Virus record (IMG/VR): IMGVR_UViG_2541047932_000013 | Span: 1 to 8,634 of that record | Length of the DNA: 8,634 bases | Source: a virus | Taxonomy: Duplodnaviria > Heunggongvirae > Uroviricota > Caudoviricetes | Strand: one strand, 5' to 3' | Shown: positions 1 through 8,634 of the stretch, one piece after another | How positions within the stretch are numbered: position 1 is the first letter of the stretch | Layout of the letters: each line of letters begins with the position of its first letter | The notes under the pieces: generated by a model | What the model was told of the DNA's origin: nothing | Databases searched by the model: none | Seen by the model: the letters and a program-made list of their open reading frames with translations, nothing else | Translations under genes and position numbers: made by a program

Positions 1-131
1 TGTGGTACCGAAAGACTTGCTGCCCCCATCTCGCGCCCGAGCGCGCAAAAGAAAACCCGCGCATAGGCGGGCTCCAGAAGCAGCGGTTCATTGAATGCTG
101 CGGCAATAATGTGTGAAAGATTACGTCTCAC
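1..131 (-). CDS. C: Partial gpC-like head protease/scaffold protein; only the N-terminal ~43 codons are inside the window
   Basis: Minus-strand translation from GTG at 129-131 gives (M)RRNLSHIIAAAFNEPLLLEPAYARVFFCALGREMGAASLSVP, matching the recalled lambda gpC N-terminus (LRNLPHIASMAFNEPLMLEPAYARVFFCALAG). GGAG lies about 10 nt upstream. The start overlaps the portal stop by 11 nt and the ORF runs off the window edge. Confidence 0.6.
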   Translation of the reverse strand, partial: MRRNLSHIIAAAFNEPLLLEPAYARVFFCALGREMGAASLSVP

Positions 132-1713
132 GGGGTGTTGTCTCCTCTTCCGGCCTGCGACTCTCCGCTATCTGCTGCTGATACGCCTGCGCTATCCACA
201 CCGGACGTGAGAGTCCGGCTTTTTGCCGCTCAGCAGATTCCCTGACCTGCTGGCGGAAAATGTCCTGATAATCCTCGCCCATCAGCGCCAGCTCTTTCTC
301 ATACGTGCTCAGTCCGGCCTCAATGCGCATCACCGATTCCTGAACCTCCTTGAGCCCGTCAATGGCCATTCTTCCGGCACCAATCCACTCTGCCCGTGAC
401 CAGGCTGATCGCGCCTGATAAAAATCAAAACGCGCCCGTGGCGGACGGATAATCCCCCGAAGAAGTGCCTCTTCCAGCCAGCAGGAAAACATCTGCGTGG
501 CCAGCCGGGCCGCAATAAATTTTCGCCGCCCCATAAAATAGCGCCACGACTCATTGGCAGAGGCCCTGGCACTTGAATAACTGACCTTCGAGTAATCACG
601 GGACAACTGTTCGTAGGAAACGCCAAGACCGGCGGCGATATACCGCAGCAGCGCCTGTTCAAGCGCCGAAAATCCATTGTCTGAATCCTGCGCAGTCTGT
701 AGTTTCAGATCATCCCCGGGGAAAAGGTGCGGAATTTTGACTCCGCCCAGCGTCACGCTATTCGTGTCATACCAGCTGGAGAACTTCTCCAGAATATTAA
801 TAAGCGGATTATCCTTCTGCTCCTGTGGCGCGCCGGCGATATATTCAAAGGCCTTTTCGGTATCAAGTTCACTTTCAATCGTCGCTGCATACATGGCTTT
901 CACAATGGCCGACTGAAGCTGTGTTGCCTGCAGGGAATCCAGCATCTTCAGCCGTTCCATGACGCTGTAAAACTGATTAGCCCCACGGGTCTGCCCGTCC
1001 TCCACCGGCTCGAAAATATGCAGCATGGCCGGACGCCCGGTGGGAAGTTCACGCGGGATCCGTTCCCATCGTCCACTCCCGGAGAACGGAAAATCATCCT
1101 CACAGATATGGTACGCAACGGCACGGCCATATCGATCGACCTCCACCCCGGCCCGCAGAAAACGGTTCCCCATACCGTGTCCTGGCGTGTCCACCCGTTT
1201 CGGACTCACGGCTTTAAAACGCGTACGAAACAGTTGCGTACTCTCCGTATCCCAGACCGGCTGCACAAAGATTTCGCCGTTAAACGCATGAACGCCCACA
1301 CCTTCACGGATAAATTCCGTAAACGTGCGTCTCCCTTCCACGTCGATCTCACCAAACATCCCTTCTGCGTATTCTGACCAGGCCGCCTCCACCTCATCGA
1401 CAAAACTTTTTGCCGCGGTCTCCCGCATCCCCAGCCAGCGCCAGTTCGGACGGTAGCTAATCAGAAACATATGCCCGACAATGTGATCCTTATGCAGGGC
1501 CACCGCATTGGCCGCTATTCCGTTATTGCGCACCAGATCATCTGCACGGGCATTCCCCAGACGCAACGCGGGCAGCAGGGCCGCATCGGCACTCTGCGAG
1601 GGTGGCAACCACTCTGCCATTTGCCCGCCAAATCCTGCACCGCCACCGTTGTAGCTGAGGCTCTCCCGAAGCGGAACGCCGTTCACATCAATCAGGACAG
1701 GCGTTCGTTTCAT
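121..1713 (-). CDS. B: Portal protein (lambda gpB family)
   Basis: 530-aa ORF of lambda gpB-like size (~533 aa) in the conserved order A-W-B-C. Its ATG overlaps the gpW stop in an ATGA arrangement. Confidence 0.88.
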   Translation of the reverse strand: MKRTPVLIDVNGVPLRESLSYNGGGAGFGGQMAEWLPPSQSADAALLPALRLGNARADDLVRNNGIAANAVALHKDHIVGHMFLISYRPNWRWLGMRETAAKSFVDEVEAAWSEYAEGMFGEIDVEGRRTFTEFIREGVGVHAFNGEIFVQPVWDTESTQLFRTRFKAVSPKRVDTPGHGMGNRFLRAGVEVDRYGRAVAYHICEDDFPFSGSGRWERIPRELPTGRPAMLHIFEPVEDGQTRGANQFYSVMERLKMLDSLQATQLQSAIVKAMYAATIESELDTEKAFEYIAGAPQEQKDNPLINILEKFSSWYDTNSVTLGGVKIPHLFPGDDLKLQTAQDSDNGFSALEQALLRYIAAGLGVSYEQLSRDYSKVSYSSARASANESWRYFMGRRKFIAARLATQMFSCWLEEALLRGIIRPPRARFDFYQARSAWSRAEWIGAGRMAIDGLKEVQESVMRIEAGLSTYEKELALMGEDYQDIFRQQVRESAERQKAGLSRPVWIAQAYQQQIAESRRPEEETTPRET

Positions 1714-1916
1714 AACCTCACTCCCAGCGGACGACGGCGACGGCGGGTTGTCCCCAGTACCGACTCCGCATCATTGATCGCCCGGTTAAGCTCATCCAGA
1801 GAAGCCGCCGTATATTCAATTCTGCGACCATCTTTCTGGACAGACACCACCCGTTTACCGGTTAATAAATCAAGGCGCGCCTGACGCAGCGCCTGCAGTT
1901 CAGCGACTGTAACCAT
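1710..1916 (-). CDS. W: Head-tail joining / head completion protein (lambda gpW family)
   Basis: 68-aa ORF MVTVAELQALRQARLDLLTGKRVVSVQKDGRRIEYTAAS... closely resembles recalled lambda gpW (…[26 protein letters not shown]…). Same length and position between terminase large subunit and portal. Confidence 0.85.
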   Translation of the reverse strand: MVTVAELQALRQARLDLLTGKRVVSVQKDGRRIEYTAASLDELNRAINDAESVLGTTRRRRRPLGVRL

Positions 1917-3828
1917 TCACTCCTCCGGACAGCTTCGCTGCCAGTTCTTTAAGGGTTGGCCGGGTCGTCTCTTCTTCCCGGGATTTTGCCAGTACAGCCA
2001 GATCAAGCTGCCAGCGTTGCACGGACACACGTAATGCCGCGTAGGCATACACCAGGCAGTCCAGCGCTTCGTTACGCCGCTTTTTGTTATCCCACAGCAG
2101 ACGCATCTTTCCTTTTTCCCACTTCTCCACAAGCTCTTCCGCCACCAGTTGCTGCGCCTCTGTCTGCGAAAAAATCTCCGGATCATCAGGAAAACGGATG
2201 GCATACGACGTGGCTTCATCCGCAGGCGTGGGATCGGCTTTCATACGGGCATAGAGAATTTCTTTTGCGGTGTCCGTCCCCACTTCGCACAGATACACGC
2301 CCCGCTGATTGCGGGTTTTTGGCATGGTGATCACCGGCTTGCCATAAACAGATGCACCTTTTACCGGCAGCACCCGGAAAACACCGTGTTTTTTTGACCT
2401 CTGATAGACAATTTCGCCATCGATCCCCCCGGTGTCCCAGCAGACACGGGAAATGGTCATTTCGGTTCCGTCTGCATGGCGGTATTTTTTGTTGATCGCC
2501 ACATCCACACGTAACAGCGTCTCTTCCTCATCGGGACGCCCCATAATGATGATTTTATCCACCAGAAAGGCTTCCTCTCCCGGAGCCCATCCCCAGACAT
2601 ACATCTCAAAACGGTTTCGCTGCGAGTCAATGCCCGCCGTCAGATAAACCACCCGGGAAGGCACCGCAGCCGTGTAACGCACAACCTTATCCATCAGCAC
2701 CTGGTGATCGAGTTTTTCGCCCACGGCCTCTTCCCAGGTCTCGCCCAGCGTGGTGTTCACAAAGGTTTTCAGGCCGTTGGGATCTTTCAGTGCATCCAGC
2801 CAGTCATAGACAATCTGTACCCAGGTGGTGAACGGACTGTACGCCGTCCAGATATGGAATGTGATGGAGCGCGGCGGCGGAATTTCATTATCCGCGGCGC
2901 TGAAAAACGTCAGACCGTCGCGGGTCCACATGCCCGTGTTTTCGCAGATCCACCGCCCGTTGCTCTGGTCAAGCTCAGACTGATGGATCACGCAGCCATG
3001 ATGTTCACAGAGGTAGAAAACGCTTTCGGGGCTGTCCTTCTCCCATTTAAGGCCAAAAGGCGTGGACTCATCGCCAAATTTCAGATACTGCGCCTCCCCA
3101 CAGTGCGGGCAGGACACATAAAAACGCATGAAATGCGCCGACTCGTTGGCCGCTTTTTCGATCTGGCAGGAGCCTTTTATTTTAGGCGTCGAGCCGCGAA
3201 TGGATTTTGGCCATACCGAGCCCTCAATACGCTTATCCCCCAGCAGGGTTGGCGAGCCCTCTTTTTCGACATCCGGCTCGAACGAGGAAAGTTCGTCATA
3301 GCAGACCACGTCCACGGATTTTTCACGGTAGTTTTTTGCTGCCGCACCACCCAGGCACCAGAAGCCCACCCCCGATGAAAAGCGTTTCAGCGTGAGAGTA
3401 TTGTCACGATGTTTACGACCCAGCCACGGGGAAAGGTCTTTCAGGCATGGCACGTCCCGAATCGTCGCCTCCACGTGAGACTTCATAAAATCTTCAGCGG
3501 CAGAATCCGTGGGCTGAAAAAGCAGACTGTTTCGGGATTTATGCTCAATAAAATACCCGGCGACTCCCAGCAACATCTTTGTATAGCCAACACGGGCAGA
3601 TTTAATCAGATTAACAGTGCGGATCTGATCATTCCCCATACTGTTCATGATGGCGATCTGGAACGGCAGCGTTTTCCATTCGCCGTCACCGTATGAGGAT
3701 TCTTTAGGCAGATAATAATACTGGTCAGCCCATTCAACTGCCGTCATCGGTACAACCCTGACCAGAGGCTGCAGCGCAACCGAAACGGCGGCCACCATAT
3801 TATTCAGTTGTTGCTCTGATATATTCAT
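1900..3828 (-). CDS. A: Terminase large subunit (lambda gpA family)
   Basis: Strong similarity along the whole length to recalled lambda gpA (TAVEWADQYYYLPKES…, KRFSSGVGFWCLGGAAAKNYREKSVD, WTAYSPFTTWVQIV, RNEALDCLVYAYAALR). The six-frame ORF extends to 3885, but the homologous start is the internal ATG at 3826-3828 (MNISEQQ… versus lambda MNISNSQ…). Confidence 0.9.
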   Translation of the reverse strand: MNISEQQLNNMVAAVSVALQPLVRVVPMTAVEWADQYYYLPKESSYGDGEWKTLPFQIAIMNSMGNDQIRTVNLIKSARVGYTKMLLGVAGYFIEHKSRNSLLFQPTDSAAEDFMKSHVEATIRDVPCLKDLSPWLGRKHRDNTLTLKRFSSGVGFWCLGGAAAKNYREKSVDVVCYDELSSFEPDVEKEGSPTLLGDKRIEGSVWPKSIRGSTPKIKGSCQIEKAANESAHFMRFYVSCPHCGEAQYLKFGDESTPFGLKWEKDSPESVFYLCEHHGCVIHQSELDQSNGRWICENTGMWTRDGLTFFSAADNEIPPPRSITFHIWTAYSPFTTWVQIVYDWLDALKDPNGLKTFVNTTLGETWEEAVGEKLDHQVLMDKVVRYTAAVPSRVVYLTAGIDSQRNRFEMYVWGWAPGEEAFLVDKIIIMGRPDEEETLLRVDVAINKKYRHADGTEMTISRVCWDTGGIDGEIVYQRSKKHGVFRVLPVKGASVYGKPVITMPKTRNQRGVYLCEVGTDTAKEILYARMKADPTPADEATSYAIRFPDDPEIFSQTEAQQLVAEELVEKWEKGKMRLLWDNKKRRNEALDCLVYAYAALRVSVQRWQLDLAVLAKSREEETTRPTLKELAAKLSGGVNGYSR

Positions 3829-4309
3829 CGAGTAAATCCGGTAATTTATCCCCTGCCCGCGCACACTGATTTGCCCCCTTCGCAATAAGGGTTTTCAGAT
3901 GGTCAAGATGGCGCGGTGTTAAATCAGGAAACTGTCGCTGCATGGATAAAGGGATGGAATCAAGCGTACTGGATAACGCCATTGCCAGCTTACTGAGGGC
4001 AAAAATACAGAACCCGGTGTCAATAAGTTTTCCTTTTGACACCTCATTTTTTAACTGCTGTGTAACAGCCTGTTCTGCTGTCAGTTCCCATCTGGCAATA
4101 AGCAATTTCTCCTCATAGTCGTCTTCGCTATCGCCATCAGGCACATCGTTTTTACTTCTCCTCAGATACGATATGTAAAAATCGCGCCAGGCATCCAGAT
4201 CCAGTTGCCCTCGCTTATTCGATATCGGGGCACCCGGTAATTTCTGCAATCTGCGAAGCTGGCGATCGGTCAGACTTAAATGCCTGGCAACTTCAGTCTG
4301 CGTAGCCAC
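3800..4309 (-). CDS. nu1: Terminase small subunit, Nu1-like, with a divergent N-terminal DNA-binding domain
   Basis: C-terminal half (DTGFCIFALSKLAMALSSTLDSIPLSMQRQFPDLTPRHLDHLK…LPDLLDEYI) matches the recalled lambda Nu1 gpA-interaction region. The N-terminal ~90 aa (MATQTEVARHLSLTDRQLRRLQ…) is HTH-like but not lambda-like. GTG start with GAGGTGAGGA immediately upstream; the 3' end overlaps the A start. Confidence 0.8.
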   Translation of the reverse strand: MATQTEVARHLSLTDRQLRRLQKLPGAPISNKRGQLDLDAWRDFYISYLRRSKNDVPDGDSEDDYEEKLLIARWELTAEQAVTQQLKNEVSKGKLIDTGFCIFALSKLAMALSSTLDSIPLSMQRQFPDLTPRHLDHLKTLIAKGANQCARAGDKLPDLLDEYIRATTE

Positions 4310-4346
4310 TCCTCACCTCGCAAAAACTCTCACCTCACAATCACAA

Positions 4347-4455
4347 CAAAACCGGTCATGTCCGGTTTACATGTCTGTTTTTTGTTCATGTCCGGTTCAC
4401 AGAAGACCTGTTTTTATATTTTTCATATAGTTAACTTGAAGAGAAACCGGACATG
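4347..4455. promoter_or_regulatory. cosB-like terminase binding region with three copies of a CATGTCCGGTT(y)AC element
   Basis: Seen directly: catgtccggtttac at 4347-4360, catgtccggttcac at 4387-4400, and the inverted copy aaccggacatg at 4445-4455. An AT-rich spacer (4401-4444) separates the second and third copies. The block lies between cosN and the nu1 start, as lambda R1/R2/R3 and I1 do. Confidence 0.6.
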
Positions 4456-4492
4456 GATCCCGGAAAATTTTCATAAATAGCGAAAACCCGCG

Positions 4493-4504
4493 AGGTCGCC
4501 GCCC
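4493..4504. other. cosN, the 12-nt cohesive-end sequence (reverse complement of GGGCGGCGACCT)
   Basis: Plus strand 4461-4504 is the exact reverse complement of the first 44 nt of the lambda left end as recalled (GGGCGGCGACCTCGCGGGTTTTCGCTATTTATGAAAATTTTCCG). The flanking 4505-4560 resembles the lambda right end (…CCGTAACC.GTCGGATC.CCGGAAAGGACC…). Confidence 0.85.
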
Positions 4505-4710
4505 CGTAACCGGTCGGATCGCCGGAAAGGACCCACGAAATGATAATGATTATCATCTATATAAGGTTTATCACAACATGTGTGTACGCCATCAAACCAC
4601 GAGAAATAATCAATTATGACGCAGGTATCGTATTAATTGATCTGCGTCAAATTAACGTAAAAGCAACTTCAGATAATACAAATCAGCAACACTGAATATG
4701 GGGAAACATT

Positions 4711-4896
4711 ATGTCATCAAAGAACAGAACCCGCAGAACAACAACCCGCAACATCCGATTTCCAAACCAGATGATTGAACAAATTAACATCGCTCTTGAT
4801 CTGAAAGGTTCAGGAAACTTTTCAGCGTGGGTTATTGAAGCCTGCAGAAGAAGGCTGTCAACAGAGAGTTCGGGTATGAATTACATAATTAAGTAA
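4711..4896 (+). CDS. Small basic protein, possibly a ribbon-helix-helix DNA-binding protein, of the kind found next to cos in lambdoid prophages (YlcI/DUF3950-like by recollection)
   Basis: 61-aa ORF MSSKNRTRRTTTRNIRFPNQMIEQINIALDLKGSGNFSAWVIEACRRRL…: basic N-terminus followed by a strand-helix-helix-like pattern. Transcribed opposite to the late operon. GGGGAAACATT lies upstream of the ATG. Confidence 0.55.
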   Translation: MSSKNRTRRTTTRNIRFPNQMIEQINIALDLKGSGNFSAWVIEACRRRLSTESSGMNYIIK

Positions 4897-5028
4897 CATG
4901 GTGTTCACAGAACACGCAGTTACCGGACACATCAGTTTTCCATTCGCTCCCCGGCAGTACAGGCTTCCCCTCTGACGGGATAGCCTGAAAAAATAACACA
5001 GAAAATTATTTGTTATAATTAATATAAC

Positions 5029-5169
5029 TTACTCAAAAAAAAGCGACGAGAAAATCAGCATCAACGAACAATAAGCGCCAATACGTGATAACAAATGGCA
5101 GCCATATTTATCTGCAGTATAAGCAATGGACAGGATAACCACACCAGAAACCGTCAGCATAAAATCCAT
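5029..5169 (-). CDS. Candidate 46-aa hydrophobic small protein (below the ORF-track length cutoff)
   Basis: Hand translation of the minus strand: MDFMLTVSGVVILSIAYTADKYGCHLLSRIGAYCSLMLIFSSLFFE, stop at 5029-5031. GGGGAAG lies 6 nt upstream of the ATG at 5167-5169. It sits in an AT-rich region where lambda carries bor. Confidence 0.3.
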   Translation of the reverse strand: MDFMLTVSGVVILSIAYTADKYGCHLLSRIGAYCSLMLIFSSLFFE

Positions 5170-5519
5170 TTGAACTTCCCCGGACAAAATCGACTCATCT
5201 AAAGATTTACAGCTCTTTTTATTATCAATATGTTAAAAGTAAAATAAACAGATGTTCAATAACACGAATACAAAAACGTGCTGAAATTCAATGAATCCAT
5301 TTCTGTGTCATCAATTAATAGTGATAAACATCCGGCTTCTTCCACCATCGCACCGGACAGGCGACTATGAGGGAACAACGCCGCGCTCCGTTAACGCGGT
5401 AAACCCCGGTGTGTATCGTTTTTGATTATCCCCGCACACTCGCGCAGAGGAGTCTCCCTGTCGGGCTGCGGTCTCTGTTAATGAGGGAATACAGCGACGA
5501 TACGGCGCATCAACAAAAC

Positions 5520-5987
5520 TTATTTCAGGCACTGAGTGCGGATATAGTCCTGTGCCCCTTCCAGTTGCTTGTGCATCGTCATCAGCCGCTCTCTGAGGGT
5601 GAAATAATCCCGTGTAACGGTGTCTGCCAGTTGGGGGCCGGTTGCATTATCCACGCCGGAGGTGGTGGGGGCTTCACGCACGGAGCCTGGACAGGTGGCG
5701 TTGATCCGCAGGCGCTTACGACCAGCGGCAACGTCAGCGCGAAGAGTTTCATTTTCAGCTCTCGCATCGGCTAATTCCTTCGTGTATCTGGCATCAAGCG
5801 CAGCGACATCTCGCTGGCGCTGCTGCATGTCAGTAATAGTGGCATTCGCCAGTTTCAGCTCACTGACTTTTTTATCGCGCTGCGCTTTGTAGGTGATGGC
5901 GTTATCGCGGTAATGATTCAGCCCCAGACTAAGCACACCACAGGCTACCAGCAGGACAATAATCACCACACACAGAACACGGTTCAT
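5520..5987 (-). CDS. Rz: Rz i-spanin (inner-membrane spanin subunit)
   Basis: Very close to recalled lambda Rz ([16 protein letters not shown]…[33 protein letters not shown]…[17 protein letters not shown]). The real start is most likely the internal ATG at 5985-5987 ([13 protein letters not shown]…, N-terminal TMD); the six-frame ORF's extension to 6071 is probably not translated. Confidence 0.9.
5582..5767 (-). CDS. Rz1: Rz1 o-spanin (outer-membrane lipoprotein spanin subunit), embedded in Rz in the +1 frame
   Basis: [61 protein letters not shown] matches recalled lambda Rz1 (…LPLVVVGC…[30 protein letters not shown]…). Lipobox VSAC and a proline-rich tract are present; the gene is fully nested in Rz. 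Confidence 0.88.
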
Positions 5988-6086
5988 ATCACCACCAACG
6001 GATTGCCCAGACCAGAACAGCAATGGCCACAATACGAATGGCAAATGCCATTGCCCGAATAAGTTCAGCACTCATCTTTTTAAAGT

Positions 6087-6200
6087 TCACGATTTCAGCG
6101 CAATGACCAGTTTTGCCAGCCCATACAGCATCGGAGACACAGCAATACCAACAGCCACCCACTTAATAGCAAAAGCCAGCGCTCTGCTGATGTCATCAGT
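6087..6200. repeat. Direct repeat, copy 1 (~114 bp, ~94% identical to 6352-6465)
   Basis: Hand alignment: 7 mismatches in 114 nt against the copy 265 bp downstream. The flanks differ on both sides. Confidence 0.9.
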
Positions 6201-6209
6201 CACTGTCAC
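6087..6209 (-). CDS. Candidate 40-aa membrane peptide, a paralog of the 6352..6534 ORF; no ATG, putative GTG start coupled to the upstream stop
   Basis: The minus frame encodes (M)TVTDDISRALAFAIKWVAVGIAVSPMLYGLAKLVIALKS. It differs from the downstream copy by one I/V substitution despite 7 nucleotide differences. GTG at 6207-6209 overlaps the TGA of the preceding ORF (GTGA). Confidence 0.3.
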   Translation of the reverse strand: MTVTDDISRALAFAIKWVAVGIAVSPMLYGLAKLVIALKS

Positions 6210-6337
6210 CCCAGCAGCCCCGACGAAGACAACATCATCCAGGCCATGGAAAGAAAAAGAGCAACCAGCATTAGTGAAAATGAAATGCCGACAATTACAC
6301 AGAGGATCTTCGCCAGCGTTATGAGTTTGTCTGACAT
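6206..6337 (-). CDS. Candidate 43-aa hydrophobic membrane peptide
   Basis: MSDKLITLAKILCVIVGISFSLMLVALFLSMAWMMLSSSGLLG, with a strong SD (GGGAGGA) 6 nt upstream of the ATG at 6335-6337. It begins 14 nt after the stop of the upstream small ORF. The six-frame ORF 6206..6427 has an unlikely N-terminal extension. Confidence 0.4.
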   Translation of the reverse strand: MSDKLITLAKILCVIVGISFSLMLVALFLSMAWMMLSSSGLLG

Positions 6338-6351
6338 GCTTAATCCTCCCT

Positions 6352-6465
6352 TCACGATTTCAACGCAATGACCAGTTTTGCCAGCCCATACAGCATCGGG
6401 GACACAGCAACACCGACCGCCACCCACTTAATGGCAAAAGCCAGTGCTCTGCTGATGTCATCAGT
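6352..6465. repeat. Direct repeat, copy 2
   Basis: See copy 1. Confidence 0.9.
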
Positions 6466-6534
6466 TACAGGCGCTTTCAGTTCAAGGCCATTTTTCATAG
6501 TCAACCTCAACAGAATTCGTTTATACTTCGCCAT
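6352..6534 (-). CDS. Candidate small membrane peptide (60 aa from the ATG at 6532-6534, or 48 aa from the ATG at 6496-6498)
   Basis: …MKNGLELKAPVTDDISRALAFAIKWVAVGVAVSPMLYGLAKLVIALKS. GAGG lies 6 nt upstream of the 6498 start and GGGAG 3 nt upstream of the 6534 start. The C-terminal 38 codons are duplicated at 6087-6200. Confidence 0.4.
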   Translation of the reverse strand: MAKYKRILLRLTMKNGLELKAPVTDDISRALAFAIKWVAVGVAVSPMLYGLAKLVIALKS

Positions 6535-6567
6535 GTTCTCCCTTGCCTTACTCAAGGTCAGAAACAC

Positions 6568-6600
6568 AAAACCCCGCTTGGTGCCAATAAACGGGGTTTT
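6568..6600. terminator. Bidirectional intrinsic-terminator-like hairpin between the endolysin and the small-peptide ORFs
   Basis: AAAACCCCG (6568-6576), a 15-nt loop, then CGGGGTTTT (6592-6600): a 9-bp GC-rich stem. T-rich sequence follows on the plus strand (TTACTTTTATT) and on the minus strand (TTTTGTGTTTCTG). Confidence 0.5.
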
Positions 6601-6690
6601 TACTTTTATTCACTTACGTTTCGCCAGTTCGCAGGATTTCATGTTATCCGCCCGCGTGGCCATGCCTTATTTTTCAGCAAAATATTCTGC

Positions 6691-7224
6691 TTATCTGTCG
6701 ATACCCCAGCACGCCAGCGCGCTCTCCTGGTCACGACGGGATACCTGACCGTAGCAGTTGTTTGAACGAATACGGCAGTCTCTGCCACCGTCCTTAATCC
6801 ACCAGCGAATCGCCTCACATGCTCCCCTGCGATCACCAGCATTAATTCGTCTGTAAAACGTCGACGGGAAACACTTACCGGGACCAATGTTGTACGGACA
6901 GAATGACGCGATCCCCGCTTTCTGGGGTTCGGTCAATGGCACTTTGATGTTTTTCTCCACCCATGCCAGCGCCTTATCACGTTCGATGGCGTTAACCTGG
7001 TCGCATTTCTCCTTCGACAACTTCATGCCCGGGACGACAGGTTTACCATCCACCAGAATGGCACCGCGACAGATGGTCCAGATACCCGCGCCATCACGGT
7101 ATGCCGTGGTGTGGTTACCTTCCTTTTCATCCAGAAACTGGTCGAGAATGTCAGGCGCAGGCGCACCAGCGGCAATCAGCGCCAGAACGGCAGCCGACAG
7201 GCCGTATTTGATTTTGGTGTTCAT
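6691..7224 (-). CDS. R: Endolysin, T4-lysozyme-type (GH24), with an N-terminal signal-anchor-release-like hydrophobic segment
   Basis: 177-aa ORF. N-terminal KYGLSAAVLALIAAGAPA hydrophobic stretch, followed by a lysozyme catalytic E…D…T spacing (EKEGNHTTAYRDGAGIWT). It is partnered with an S21-type pinholin. Confidence 0.85.
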   Translation of the reverse strand: MNTKIKYGLSAAVLALIAAGAPAPDILDQFLDEKEGNHTTAYRDGAGIWTICRGAILVDGKPVVPGMKLSKEKCDQVNAIERDKALAWVEKNIKVPLTEPQKAGIASFCPYNIGPGKCFPSTFYRRINAGDRRGACEAIRWWIKDGGRDCRIRSNNCYGQVSRRDQESALACWGIDR

Positions 7225-7260
7225 GGATATATTAAATATTCAGCCGCTGTCCCTGGCCCA

Positions 7261-7818
7261 CTAAATACGCACTTTAAGATAAGTCAGCCCCGGATGAAGC
7301 CAGTAAGCCGGCACTTTTTTAAAGGGTGGAGTATTAAAATCACGAAGAAGAGCCTCCCGCACAATTGCATCCTTATCAGCACCACTGGCCAGCGCTTCAA
7401 TCTCAGCGGCTACCTGAAGATATCCCATGCAACGGCCAACGCGCTTCATCAGCCCCTGCTTTTTATTGTTCTTCAGGTAATCAATGGCAAATTCAATGAG
7501 CTCCTCACTGTGCTGGTGCAATGGAGGTGTTACTTTCCCATTTTCTGAGATGGTTATTTTCCCGGCATCACCGGATACAACAAAGGATGGCCGGTTACAC
7601 TCCCATTCCAGGTTACTGAAATTATCATTATGAATACTGAAACACTCTGAGAGATTTCTGCTCATCACTTTCCGACAATAATCGTCAAACGCAGCAAACT
7701 GCTCATCGCGGCGTTTTTTTTCATCTTCAGAAGGCATCAGCGTCGACAGTTTTTTATTCAGTTCAGCAATTTCATTTTCCAGACGACTGAAGCGCTGATT
7801 CATTTCTTCATGGTTCAT
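7261..7818 (-). CDS. Hypothetical 185-aa soluble protein with an N-terminal coiled-coil-like segment, inserted between holin and endolysin
   Basis: ATG at 7816-7818 lies directly after the holin stop (7822-7824), with GGGGAG upstream. No TM segment or signal peptide is visible; the N-terminus reads EEMNQRFSRLENEIAELNKKLSTL. The sequence is visibly more AT-rich than the neighbouring lysis genes. No family recognised. Confidence 0.6.
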   Translation of the reverse strand: MNHEEMNQRFSRLENEIAELNKKLSTLMPSEDEKKRRDEQFAAFDDYCRKVMSRNLSECFSIHNDNFSNLEWECNRPSFVVSGDAGKITISENGKVTPPLHQHSEELIEFAIDYLKNNKKQGLMKRVGRCMGYLQVAAEIEALASGADKDAIVREALLRDFNTPPFKKVPAYWLHPGLTYLKVRI

Positions 7819-7821
7819 CAC

Positions 7822-8028
7822 CTAATCTCCCCGGGCAGCCTTGCGACGGTCCTCTCTGATTTTGAAATACAGGTTAGTCAGATACGTCAGCAGGCCAAAC
7901 AGCAGACTCCCCAGCACACCTATCGCCACCCACTGGGACGGAGAGACTTTGTCCAGCAGCTGCAGTAACCAGTATCCCGTCCCCACCGCTGACGTGGTGT
8001 ATGACACACCCGTTGTGATTTTTTCCAT
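7822..8028 (-). CDS. S: Class II holin (pinholin), phage 21 S21-like
   Basis: 68 aa: [68 protein letters not shown]. It is nearly colinear with the S21 pinholin as recalled (two TMDs, …[14 protein letters not shown]…[21 protein letters not shown]). Confidence 0.88.
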
Positions 8029-8069
8029 CTGATGTATGTCTCCGTCACCGCCGACAGAAAATGAAAGTA

Positions 8070-8108
8070 AAGGAAAACAAAAAGCCGCCAGTGTCGCCCA
8101 CTGACGGC
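8070..8108 (-). terminator. tR'-like intrinsic terminator upstream of the holin (minus strand)
   Basis: On the minus strand: stem GCCGTCAGTG / CACTGGCGGC (10 bp, one mismatch; plus 8084-8108) followed by TTTTTGTTTTCC. It ends about 40 nt upstream of the holin start, the position of the terminator read through by Q in lambdoid phages. Confidence 0.5.
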
Positions 8109-8187
8109 CAACGCCGGGAGCCGTGATTATGGCATTCAGGCTCTGCTAAAAATGCCAGATAACATTCCGGCTCCCCCCCTGATTCAG

Positions 8188-8214
8188 GTTATAAATGACA
8201 CAATATCTTGACAA
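8188..8214 (-). promoter_or_regulatory. Candidate late promoter (pR'-like): -35 TTGTCA and -10 TATAAC on the minus strand
   Basis: Minus-strand reading TTGTCA-(15 nt)-TATAAC, about 80-110 nt upstream of the tR'-like hairpin. The spacer is short and Q was not seen in the window, so this is tentative. Confidence 0.25.
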
Positions 8215-8287
8215 CACCCATCACTGTCTGTCAGAAAATGTACTGCCAGATATAAGTATCATGTGAAACCCAACTATCCTTCTTAGC

Positions 8288-8329
8288 CAGTACTTCTCCG
8301 ACGAAAGTCAGTACTGGCTGTTTTTTTAT
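8288..8329 (+). terminator. Plus-strand intrinsic terminator hairpin abutting the stop of the partial upstream ORF
   Basis: CCAGTACT…AGTACTGG (8-bp stem, 15-nt loop with an internal GAC/GTC pair) followed by CTGTTTTTTTATT on the plus strand. The minus-strand reading has only an A-run before the stem and no U-tract after it. Confidence 0.45.
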
Positions 8330-8634
8330 TATGCTGCCGGTGCATTTATCTCCAGCACCAGACTTTCTATCTCAACGCCATACGCTGCATTTTTTGTAAC
8401 ATCCGTCAGCGTCAGCGCATTCAGTCCCAGTGTCAGACTGTCTTTTATAACCTGGAATGCCGGGCCAGCCACTCCATTCAGTTTCGGAGTAACCGTGGCA
8501 CTGCCGGCGGTGAACACCAGCTCCAGCGTCTGCCAGTCGTTACCGTAATCGCCGAACTCCCCCAGCTTCGTGTTTCCGGCTTTCCTGTGATGCATCAGAT
8601 TCACTCTGCCGTCAGTGGTCTGAGTGAAGTACGA
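8329..8634 (-). CDS. Partial ORF of unknown function (C-terminal ≥101 aa; N-terminus beyond the window edge)
   Basis: The reading frame is open from the window edge to the stop at 8329-8331 (…TLELVFTAGSATVTPKLNGVAGPAFQVIKDSLTLGLNALTLTDVTKNAAYGVEIESLVLEINAPAA). It is beta-rich-looking and not Q-like (no Cys/His zinc motif). It sits in the slot between the Q region and the lysis genes where lambdoid phages carry cargo. Confidence 0.45.
   Translation of the reverse strand, partial: SYFTQTTDGRVNLMHHRKAGNTKLGEFGDYGNDWQTLELVFTAGSATVTPKLNGVAGPAFQVIKDSLTLGLNALTLTDVTKNAAYGVEIESLVLEINAPAA

Follow-up and report, generated by a model that had tools for sequence, protein, structure and literature searches.

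The lysis cassette of lambdoid phages is usually given as four genes, S, R, Rz and Rz1, and in phage lambda and many of its relatives R directly adjoins Rz. In Shiga toxin (Stx)-converting and related lambdoid prophages, toxin release is controlled via this cassette. Phage 21 possesses the pinholin/antiholin pair S21-68/S21-71, and accessory genes of the moron type typically carry a promoter of their own and a downstream terminator. The releasin gp25 of phage Mu (DUF2730) is needed to free an endolysin of the signal-anchor-release (SAR) class (PMC9239132), and the R-type lysozyme of Stx phages has been described as such a SAR endolysin (PMC8136144). Furthermore, hokW-sokW of the Stx2 prophage Sp5 of strain Sakai is an antisense-RNA-guarded membrane toxin promoting lysis and phage release (PMC8621323). 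Here we describe an array of four very small genes, designated pepA, pepB, pepA' and pepC, which is located between R and Rz in the IMG/VR virus record IMGVR_UViG_2541047932_000013 (positions 1 to 8,634; this whole stretch of 8,634 nucleotides is referred to as the window).

The minus strand of the window represents the lambdoid late region of an Escherichia coli prophage. Its cassette belongs to the phage-21/Stx type and exhibits the gene order pinholin S, an insert encoding 186 amino acids (aa), predicted SAR endolysin R, peptide array and Rz/Rz1; terminase and portal genes lie beyond Rz/Rz1. R and Rz are separated by 703 nt (R stop at 6691, Rz start at 5987), which agrees with the about 700 bp given in a first-pass annotation made from the sequence alone. 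The three mini open reading frames (ORFs) listed there are present as described, but the count was wrong, as pepC is a fourth. The array comprises the following tightly packed genes:

6352..6534, minus strand: pepA, 60 aa, Shine-Dalgarno (SD) sequence AAGGGAGAA; phrog_1115 (E 2.6e-42), RefSeq WP_001151823.1
6206..6337, minus strand: pepB, 43 aa, strongly hydrophobic single transmembrane (TM) peptide, SD sequence GAAGGGAGGA; phrog_4906 (E 2.1e-23)
6087..6209, minus strand: pepA', 40 aa, 5'-truncated pepA paralogue, member of the type II cassette; phrog_1115 (E 6.4e-25)
5989..6075, minus strand: pepC, 28 aa, short paralogue of the '...RWW' branch of pepA; phrog_4493 (E 3.8e-6), RefSeq WP_032140280.1

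Every peptide ORF has either an SD site or start-stop coupling, and the resulting chain leads into Rz. The stop-to-start distances within the array range from overlap to about 14 nt, and the 3' codons of each peptide ORF provide the SD site of the next gene. The strong SD site reported before the middle ORF is that of pepB, and the GTG start of pepA' (6209) overlaps the TGA of pepB, also as reported. A second GTG is situated at 6203, 5 nt after the sequence GGGG; RefSeq annotates a 51-aa version of pepA' (WP_042004856.1). The TGA of pepC ends 1 nt before the ATG of Rz, and the last pepC codons (GGTGGTGA) form the SD site of Rz. This distance of 1 nt between the stop of pepC and Rz was found in 93 loci; where pepB is the last peptide gene, it amounts to 7 nt (22 loci) or 11 nt, or the two genes overlap. 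From established lambdoid biology we infer a translationally coupled chain that feeds Rz on a Q-antiterminated late transcript. An internal ATG of pepA at 6498, giving a product of 48 aa, has a GAGG SD site of its own. Given that the pepA family includes members starting with MKNG as well as members with a conserved extension (Y[KR][KR]-hydrophobic), both starts (6534 and 6498) are plausible.

The first-pass annotation had predicted a single hydrophobic helix for each peptide. This is in line with the best 19-residue Kyte-Doolittle windows (1.9-2.9), the value being highest for pepB (2.89) and moderate for pepA (1.88), as well as with an AlphaFold2 (AF2) model of pepA based on 24 homologues. 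In this model a helix spans residues 23-59 with a predicted local distance difference test (pLDDT) value of about 90, and a further helix at residues 2-16 is of low confidence. In pepA, a basic segment at the N-terminus precedes a single long helix at the C-terminus, which has lysines near both of its ends. In addition, one database protein is a natural pepB-pepA' fusion, which AF2 models as a two-helix hairpin (pLDDT 73).

As in the holin/antiholin system, small inner-membrane helix proteins are encoded here in a cassette beside a pinholin and a predicted SAR endolysin. In a manner recalling dual-start motifs, pepA has two possible in-frame starts, M1 and M13, each with an SD site, and the long form would carry four extra N-terminal basic residues. 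However, these starts are 12 codons apart and not 1-3 as in S21-68/S21-71, and pepA has one helix instead of two and no Pfam match. Unlike holin pairs, the pepA family is found together with other holin and endolysin types, too, and also outside lysis cassettes. The peptides resemble gp25 of Mu in being small, tethered to the membrane and encoded in the vicinity of a SAR endolysin and spanins, and gp25 illustrates how an accessory TM peptide might act. Whereas gp25 consists of an N-terminal transmembrane domain (TMD) and a cytoplasmic domain, the helix of pepA is C-terminal and pepB is almost entirely TMD; a Pfam search gave no DUF2730 match for the peptides. The co-occurrence with a predicted SAR endolysin holds in the E. 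coli cassettes, but not in the locus of phage phiSTEC1575-Stx2k (L095), which has a non-SAR endolysin of the M15 type, nor in the non-lysis contexts. In contrast to spanins, the peptides end 0-14 residues past the helix and have neither a periplasmic domain nor a lipobox.

Evidence of translation is available for a direct homologue of pepB, XECs191 (MMGWLMISDKLITLVKSLCVLVGISFLVMLVAIFFSTAWRVLTLSGLVG) of E. coli O157:H7 Sakai, which was described as a translated intergenic small gene and classed as 'real' (Huecker et al. 2017, PMC5597208). In lysogeny broth it exhibited 30.0 reads per kilobase per million mapped reads (RPKM) in the transcriptome and 12.6 in the translatome, a ribosome coverage value (RCV) of 0.43 and a coverage of 0.55, and its product was assigned by prediction to the inner membrane, with a single TM helix (PMC5597208). 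A ribosome profiling (RIBOseq) signal, which the first-pass annotation had suggested looking for, therefore exists for this homologue. The Stx-phage version differs from pepB of the window in that it follows ant and not pepA. The same paper assigns no function to XECs191 and does not discuss its position next to Rz. We consider it very likely that pepA and pepB are real, translated genes for small membrane proteins; for pepA' and pepC our judgement leans only slightly to the same side. Already known are the ORFs themselves, as entries of unknown function in RefSeq and PHROGs, and the report of the pepB homologue as a translated small gene. New are the recognition that paralogous peptides form an array leading into Rz, the two predominant architectures of this array with their frequencies, the probable recombinant origin of the repeat and the layout of hairpin and candidate antisense promoter described below.

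The occurrence of the module was determined in a sample of 5426 complete E. coli genomes, 1812 of which contained DNA matches to a 626-nt query. Two architectures predominate. The type I cassette, R-hairpin-pepA-pepB-Rz, was found in about 75 of 86 loci, and its arm hairpin-pepA-pepB was present with at least 80% coverage in 990 of the genomes. E. coli O104:H4 2011C-3493 (NC_018658, around 2,172,000), strain SCU-105 and phage PhiR5_2 (PV340546) are examples of type I carriers. The type II cassette, R-hairpin-pepD-pepB-pepA'-pepC-Rz, accounted for about 85 of 101 loci, the arm pepB-pepA'-pepC-Rz being present in 581 genomes; pepD encodes a fifth TM peptide of about 31 aa (PHROG 6632). The module thus recurs between R and Rz in hundreds of prophages, a point on which the first-pass annotation had asked for a search.

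Full-length pepB with 65-100% identity was detected in 276 phage records, mostly of Stx-converting phages, where it lies between ant and Rz (ant-pepB-Rz). In phage 933W (NC_000924, L199) the pepB homologue of 44-49 aa (locus 5421..5570, corresponding to 27420..27569 of the record) occupies the 153-nt gap between ant and Rz and has no RefSeq annotation; the ORF is likewise unannotated in many other Stx-phage records. Four loci (L066, L067, L069 and L081) carry a frameshift in pepB after codon 27, resulting in the tail RLDDVVFVGDAGVRGI and a stop overlapping the Rz start. In this variant the TM helix is kept and the tail is lost.

In Salmonella, the order is holin-lysozyme-hairpin-pepA-Rz, with a holin and a lysozyme of other types. 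Upstream of the hairpin-pepA unit, one such locus (L086, 2715..2813) contains a 32-aa hydrophobic ORF (MAAMICFVAAFMLACDGRSGWGWFLLVGLIVM) that shares its sequence in part with the end of the lysozyme gene, which it overlaps; the sole match of this ORF is a weak one to phrog_14810. The cassette with the M15 endolysin (L095) carries a pepC-type gene of 57 aa. There (1980..2337) this gene is followed, after 1 nt, by a predicted lipoprotein of 60 aa in place of Rz (lipobox FLLVGC; phrog_7528, unknown function), and no i-spanin is evident nearby. Outside lysis cassettes, members of the pepA family follow tail-fibre genes, lie close to the ends of prophages or precede a portal-like gene. The last case is a metagenome contig (L201, 240..740) with two tandem units, each consisting of a hairpin and a pepC-type gene (59 and 46 aa), directly upstream of the portal-like gene. 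The unit of hairpin and peptide gene therefore duplicates and moves outside lysis cassettes.

The array of the window contains a direct repeat, which was located by a repeat search and characterised by counting the differences between its copies:

6086..6203, no strand assigned: direct repeat copy 1, core of pepA'
6351..6468, no strand assigned: direct repeat copy 2, core of pepA

The copies are 118 nt long and 93% identical, and they form the sole direct-repeat family returned by the search. Of the 8 differences between them, 7 are synonymous in the minus frame and one is an I/V exchange. The earlier values of about 114 bp and 7 differences (6 synonymous plus I/V) were essentially right, though off by one difference. 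In the best plus frame there are 5 synonymous and 3 non-synonymous changes; each of the remaining four frames is interrupted by stops or has mostly non-synonymous changes. Among 17 unique intact sequences, the ratio of non-synonymous to synonymous polymorphism (pN/pS) of the pepA core was 0.17 in its own frame, the lowest of all six frames, and 0.30 in the codon-aligned shadow frame. These values show purifying selection on pepA. For pepB, pN/pS was 0.54, and none of 22 unique variants contained a stop. pepA' and pepC exhibited only 3-4 polymorphisms per gene in type II loci, too few for a selection test; in the 81 close type II loci compared, which comprise 19 haplotypes, all four ORFs of the pepD-pepB-pepA'-pepC cassette were intact without exception (81 of 81).

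The window also contains the plus-strand ORFs 6103..6324 and 6368..6748, and it might be that these are the real genes and the minus-strand peptides their shadows. The plus frame is open over the repeat in all variants and its pN/pS amounts to 0.30, and long antisense ORFs are open in two other family loci (L089 and L091), too. An open antisense frame is, however, expected where TTA, CTA and TCA codons are rare. Both the lower pN/pS and the 7:1 compared to the 5:3 ratio of synonymous to non-synonymous changes in the repeat favour the minus frame, in accordance with the strand preferred in the first-pass annotation. Furthermore, neither plus-strand ATG is preceded by an SD site, the 126-aa ORF 6368..6748 crosses the terminator hairpin and enters the antisense strand of R, and the evidence from PHROG, RefSeq and RIBOseq concerns minus-frame products throughout. 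We therefore regard genes on the plus strand as highly improbable.

Positions 7234..6206 of the window can be aligned without interruption to a type I locus and positions 6340..5529 to a type II locus, the overlap being exactly pepB. Among the loci compared, pepA and pepA' occur together only in the window and in one other IMG/VR contig (L050), and none of the best-ranked complete E. coli genomes covers more than 84% of the 626-nt query. In all probability, the array of the window is rare and arose by homologous recombination, in which two cassette types, both of them common, crossed over in the shared pepB. The pepA' peptide is identical to full-length pepA alleles found elsewhere, e.g. in L078 and L066. 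Therefore, the 7:1 synonymous excess reflects the divergence between full-length alleles and is no proof of translation of, or selection on, the truncated copy. The conclusion drawn earlier from the repeat, namely that both copies are translated and under purifying selection, is not supported by it, as allelic divergence and mosaicism account for the pattern. Accordingly, the duplication does not appear to be an in-situ tandem duplication kept by selection. Further junction variants, i.e. pepA-pepC-Rz, pepD-pepB-pepA'-pepB-Rz and a pepB with frame-shifted tail overlapping the Rz start, confirm the R/Rz interval as a recombination hot spot. The locus illustrates that mosaic recombination can look like a 'duplication under purifying selection'.

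Judged by sequence comparison, pepA, pepA' and pepC are paralogues of one narrow family and pepB is unrelated to it. The former match profiles of PHROGs 1115, 4493 and 3246, and pepB matches PHROG 4906; all of these are labelled 'unknown function'. RefSeq/PGAP calls 'hypothetical proteins' of 60 and 43 aa on the minus strand of type I cassettes and of 43, 51 and 28 aa in type II cassettes. The earlier statement that no known family can be assigned is right in so far as no family with a named function was found, but the ORFs are contained in PHROGs and in RefSeq. pepC aligns to pepA with a score of 48, including the AFAI[KR] core, which was reached by 0 of 2000 shuffled sequences. Full-length relatives of pepC ending in '...RWW' comprise 37-57 aa, the 57-aa forms occurring in L095 and L101. 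Diverged members of the pepA family keep the pattern MK(N/D)GLExxAP...AFAI(K/R) and fall into three C-terminal types (...ALKS, ...RWW and ...PLIxALK). The conserved N-terminal MKNGLExxAP segment of the full-length relatives is missing in pepA' and pepC. In the case of pepD, a possible further paralogue of pepA, the C-terminal 23 residues align with pepA (p 0.0035), but the peptide is assigned to a PHROG of its own.

In protein searches, all relatives carried the name 'hypothetical protein' and came from Escherichia and Salmonella. A profile search with the pepA family returned 24 clusters among 1.84 billion representatives. No pepA relative was found in a contig scan with one genome per species, as expected for a family restricted to certain prophages of E. 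coli and Salmonella. Full-text literature searches with the peptide sequences or WP accessions found no papers, and sequence searches of Pfam, NCBIfam, PADLOC and PDB gave no match for the four peptides. Three candidate relationships were discarded. The best match of pepB to DUF3930 had an E-value of 0.08 and was treated as noise. A 12-residue resemblance between pepA (KWVAVGVAVSPM) and TMD2 of the S21-type pinholin S reached a shuffle p of 0.0025 in local alignment, but HHalign of the pepA family against S21 holins gave a probability of 4%. A derivation of pepB from a duplicated N-terminal TMD of Rz, with which it has 'LCV' in common, was unsupported (shuffle p 0.06).

Two elements were identified upstream of pepA and within its first codons:

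6568..6600, no strand assigned: GC-rich hairpin with T-runs on both strands, resembling a bidirectional intrinsic terminator (inverted-repeat search)
6498..6527, plus strand: antisense sigma-70 promoter-like site TAGTCA-18-TATACT in pepA codons 3-12, facing the hairpin (promoter scan)

Homologous or analogous hairpins precede genes of the pepA family in every context examined. They were found after R in E. coli and after the lysozyme gene in Salmonella, after a 93-aa gene in the cassette with the M15 endolysin, after tail-fibre genes despite a terminator just upstream, and twice in tandem in L201. Five of the 13 pairs of the hairpin exhibit compensatory double changes. In 933W, which carries ant instead of the module, there is no hairpin. 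Since the homology of 933W to the window ends just before the hairpin position, the hairpin is the left boundary of the peptide module. The about 85 nt downstream of R (6601..6690) are conserved together with R even in 933W, placing the mosaic boundary at about 6600.

The antisense site is the only sigma-70-like match between positions 5400 and 8634 of the window. With a re-implemented scan rule, an equivalent site was detected within a 90-nt window in 7 of 9 distinct family genes, which are themselves related to one another in sequence; at a background of 3.6e-4 per nucleotide and strand, about 0.03 matches are expected per 90-nt window. Sites are present in L086, L089 (TTGGCC-16-TATACT), L095 and L101 (both TGGACA-18-TATACT), L200 (TGGTCA-18-TATACT) and the second paralogue of L201 (TTCATA-16-TAAAAT), and the promoter scan found none in L091 and the first paralogue of L201. 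Transcription from the site would yield a hypothetical antisense RNA of about 70-75 nt (approximately 6535..6610), complementary to the 5' untranslated region (UTR) and the SD site of pepA. Its predicted fold has an energy of -18.8 kcal/mol (z -1.95). An Rfam search with the whole window (E up to 1) gave three sub-threshold chance matches only, and no sense promoter for the peptides was found in the six loci scanned. The sequences of the predicted RNA and promoter are absent from the supplementary files of a transcription start site (TSS) study of strain EDL933, which may lack the module.

With type I toxin-antitoxin systems, such as hok/sok, hokW-sokW and those with a 5' overlap of the symE/symR type, the peptides (28-60 aa) share small size, hydrophobicity and a TM helix. 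A further similarity is the candidate cis-antisense RNA, with a promoter in the 5' coding region, covering the translation-initiation region. In contrast to these systems, the array genes are arranged in-line in a late operon, a dedicated toxin promoter was not found, and the antisense RNA is a prediction. For the type I families Hok/Gef, Ldr, Ibs and TisB as well as Sok, Rdl and Sib, searches of Pfam, NCBIfam and Rfam gave no match. The lambda-type morons bor and lom and the ant insertion of Stx phages resemble the array in that they, too, are accessory cargo located where the late region has its mosaic boundaries; a further similarity is that the pepA unit moves between contexts. Unlike in morons, the hairpin of pepA lies upstream of the gene and no sense promoter was seen. 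Functionally, the array would most resemble accessory membrane proteins of lysis cassettes, possibly type I toxins.

According to the explanation we favour, the array is a mosaic of four very small minus-strand genes encoding accessory inner-membrane factors of late lysis, a view for and against which the arguments are about evenly balanced. A lysis-related role of the peptides, taken as a separate claim, is put forward tentatively. The peptide genes would be part of the late transcript, whose antitermination by Q would allow read-through of the hairpin after R, and would be translated from their own SD sites or by coupling. The products might then insert into the inner membrane at lysis time, and translation of the last small ORF could help to load ribosomes onto Rz. 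There, the peptides may tune the membrane step of lysis, with collapse of the proton motive force and pinholin triggering, release of the tethered endolysin or spanin function as candidate targets. The roles put forward in the first-pass annotation, i.e. antiholin or lysis-timing factor, spanin modulator and small-toxin module, would all be candidates, too. They are accessory and not essential, because R directly adjoins Rz in lambda and many relatives and other relatives have different peptide sets. The main argument for the putative role in lysis is position: a pepA- or pepC-type gene comes after three different types of endolysin and after no fewer than two types of holin, and the spanin gene or the next gene follows it directly. 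A number of observations weigh against this explanation. The RIBOseq signal in Sakai was obtained with uninduced cultures and is low. The constraint on pepB is weak, with 4-5 loci exhibiting a frameshift in the C-terminal tail, and pepA' and pepC are 5'-truncated copies. Searches of Pfam, NCBIfam, PADLOC and PDB linked the peptides neither with holins or antiholins nor with releasin (DUF2730), Hok or spanins. Position by itself is weak evidence of a lysis role, since members of the family are found outside lysis cassettes as well and ant, a non-lysis gene, can occupy the R/Rz slot.

Alternatively, the peptides might be moron-type cargo unrelated to lysis, acting e.g. in superinfection exclusion, membrane remodelling or host fitness, in a permissive R/Rz hot spot, and the tight packing would then be a mere economical insertion into the late operon. 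The highly mosaic slot, which holds ant, Ant-like genes, pepA, pepD or pepA'/pepC in different phages, fits this possibility, as do the family members at other prophage sites, the hairpin travelling with the gene as in a mobile unit and the narrowness of the family. We nevertheless regard it as unlikely: expression in the lysogen, typical of bor and lom, is not apparent as no sense promoter was found, the upstream terminator would block transcription that is not antiterminated, and PADLOC gave no match. Moreover, pepB- and pepC-type genes adjoin the spanin start (overlap to 11 nt) even where pepB identity has dropped to 65%, which is more than random insertion would keep. According to another view, pepA', pepC and possibly pepB would not be functional proteins but recombination debris, serving at most as 'coupling ORFs' that feed ribosomes to Rz after insertions had separated it from R. 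The truncated N-termini of pepA' and pepC, the lack of a classical ATG in pepA', the origin of the 7:1 excess in full-length alleles, the frameshift tolerated in the tail of pepB and the use of the last codons of each upstream ORF as SD site of the next gene are all in line with this. On the other hand, a coupling ORF would not need a TM helix, and in pepB it is the hydrophobic helix and not just the 3' end that is conserved across Stx phages. Considering also the intactness of all four ORFs in the close type II loci and the full-length pepC-type genes of 37-57 aa at the same position, the debris hypothesis seems rather improbable to us.

A further possibility is compatible with the accessory lysis factors favoured above and would add a regulatory layer to them. 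The pepA family might represent a module resembling type I toxins with their antisense RNAs, in which a constitutive promoter within the first 12 or so codons fires backwards and a roughly 70-nt RNA ends at the hairpin. By pairing with 5' UTR and SD site, this RNA would silence a leaky membrane-toxic peptide in the lysogen; after induction, the flood of late transcript would outrun the antisense RNA and the peptide would help to depolarise or permeabilise the membrane. The antisense site as the only match in 3.2 kb, its recurrence in most family genes with differing hexamers and spacers, the hairpin with T-runs on both sides before the gene in every context including the tandem units of L201, the size and hydrophobicity of the peptides and the precedent of hokW-sokW (PMC8621323) speak in favour of such a module. 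However, the -10 element overlaps conserved Lys-Tyr codons and the -35 element the internal start, so that the motif could be a by-product of constraints on coding and translation initiation, and it is missing in two family genes. The predicted RNA has no Rfam match, folds just marginally better than shuffled sequences and was not found in the EDL933 files, although that strain perhaps lacks the module. As there is furthermore neither a sense promoter for the toxin nor homology to Hok or other known toxins, we consider the antisense-RNA module doubtful. A more far-reaching version, in which the pepA family is the toxin half of a previously undescribed antisense-RNA-guarded module (hairpin, 5' UTR and gene with internal antisense promoter) that has been repeatedly recruited into late and lysis operons of enterobacterial lambdoid phages and, located upstream of the spanins, assists together with pepB in depolarisation or in the timing of lysis, is decidedly unlikely. 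If it were true, pinholin/SAR-endolysin cassettes would contain a fourth functional class, present in about a fifth to a third of E. coli genomes, and should the antisense RNA exist, it would provide a new case of toxic peptides guarded by RNA within a phage late operon.

A large share of the lysis cassettes of Stx-converting and related lambdoid prophages hold one to four extra genes for small membrane peptides in direct coupling with the spanin gene. As a common part of Stx-type lysis cassettes, the array is experimentally tractable, and if the peptides tune lysis timing or depolarisation, burst size and Shiga-toxin release would be affected.

The remaining genes of the lysis cassette were identified as follows:

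7822..8028, minus strand: S, phage-21-type holin (pinholin), 68 aa; Pfam PF04971 Phage_holin_2_1 (E 8.9e-33)
7261..7821, minus strand: ORF of 186 aa; phrog_1085 (E 1e-111), labelled unknown function
6691..7224, minus strand: R, lysozyme, predicted SAR endolysin of the R21 type; Pfam PF00959 (E 1.4e-24, residues 33-167)
5520..5987, minus strand: Rz, i-spanin; Pfam PF03245 (E 1.4e-48)
5582..5767, minus strand: Rz1, o-spanin inside Rz, lipobox LVVSAC; from the ORF list

The N-terminus of R is a weakly hydrophobic segment rich in Ala and Gly, with a hydrophobic stretch at residues 9-27. The same Rz1 gene embedded in Rz is carried in the annotation of 933W. The ATG of the 186-aa ORF adjoins the stop of S, and the ORF has no match in Pfam, NCBIfam or PADLOC. 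In related loci, the slot between S and R is empty, contains a truncated version or is annotated as a 'YdfR family' pseudogene. It is therefore a second variable insertion point of the cassette.

A strong terminator-like hairpin (8083..8109, minus strand) with 11 pairs followed by TTTTGTTTT separates the lysis cassette from the end of the upstream esterase-like gene; its distance to the S start, which lies downstream, is about 55 nt. On the other side of the cassette, a plus-strand ORF of 61 aa (4711..4896) between Rz and the terminase genes is the counterpart of the YlcI/YnfO (DUF3950) family, a gene of which is annotated at the matching place in related prophages.

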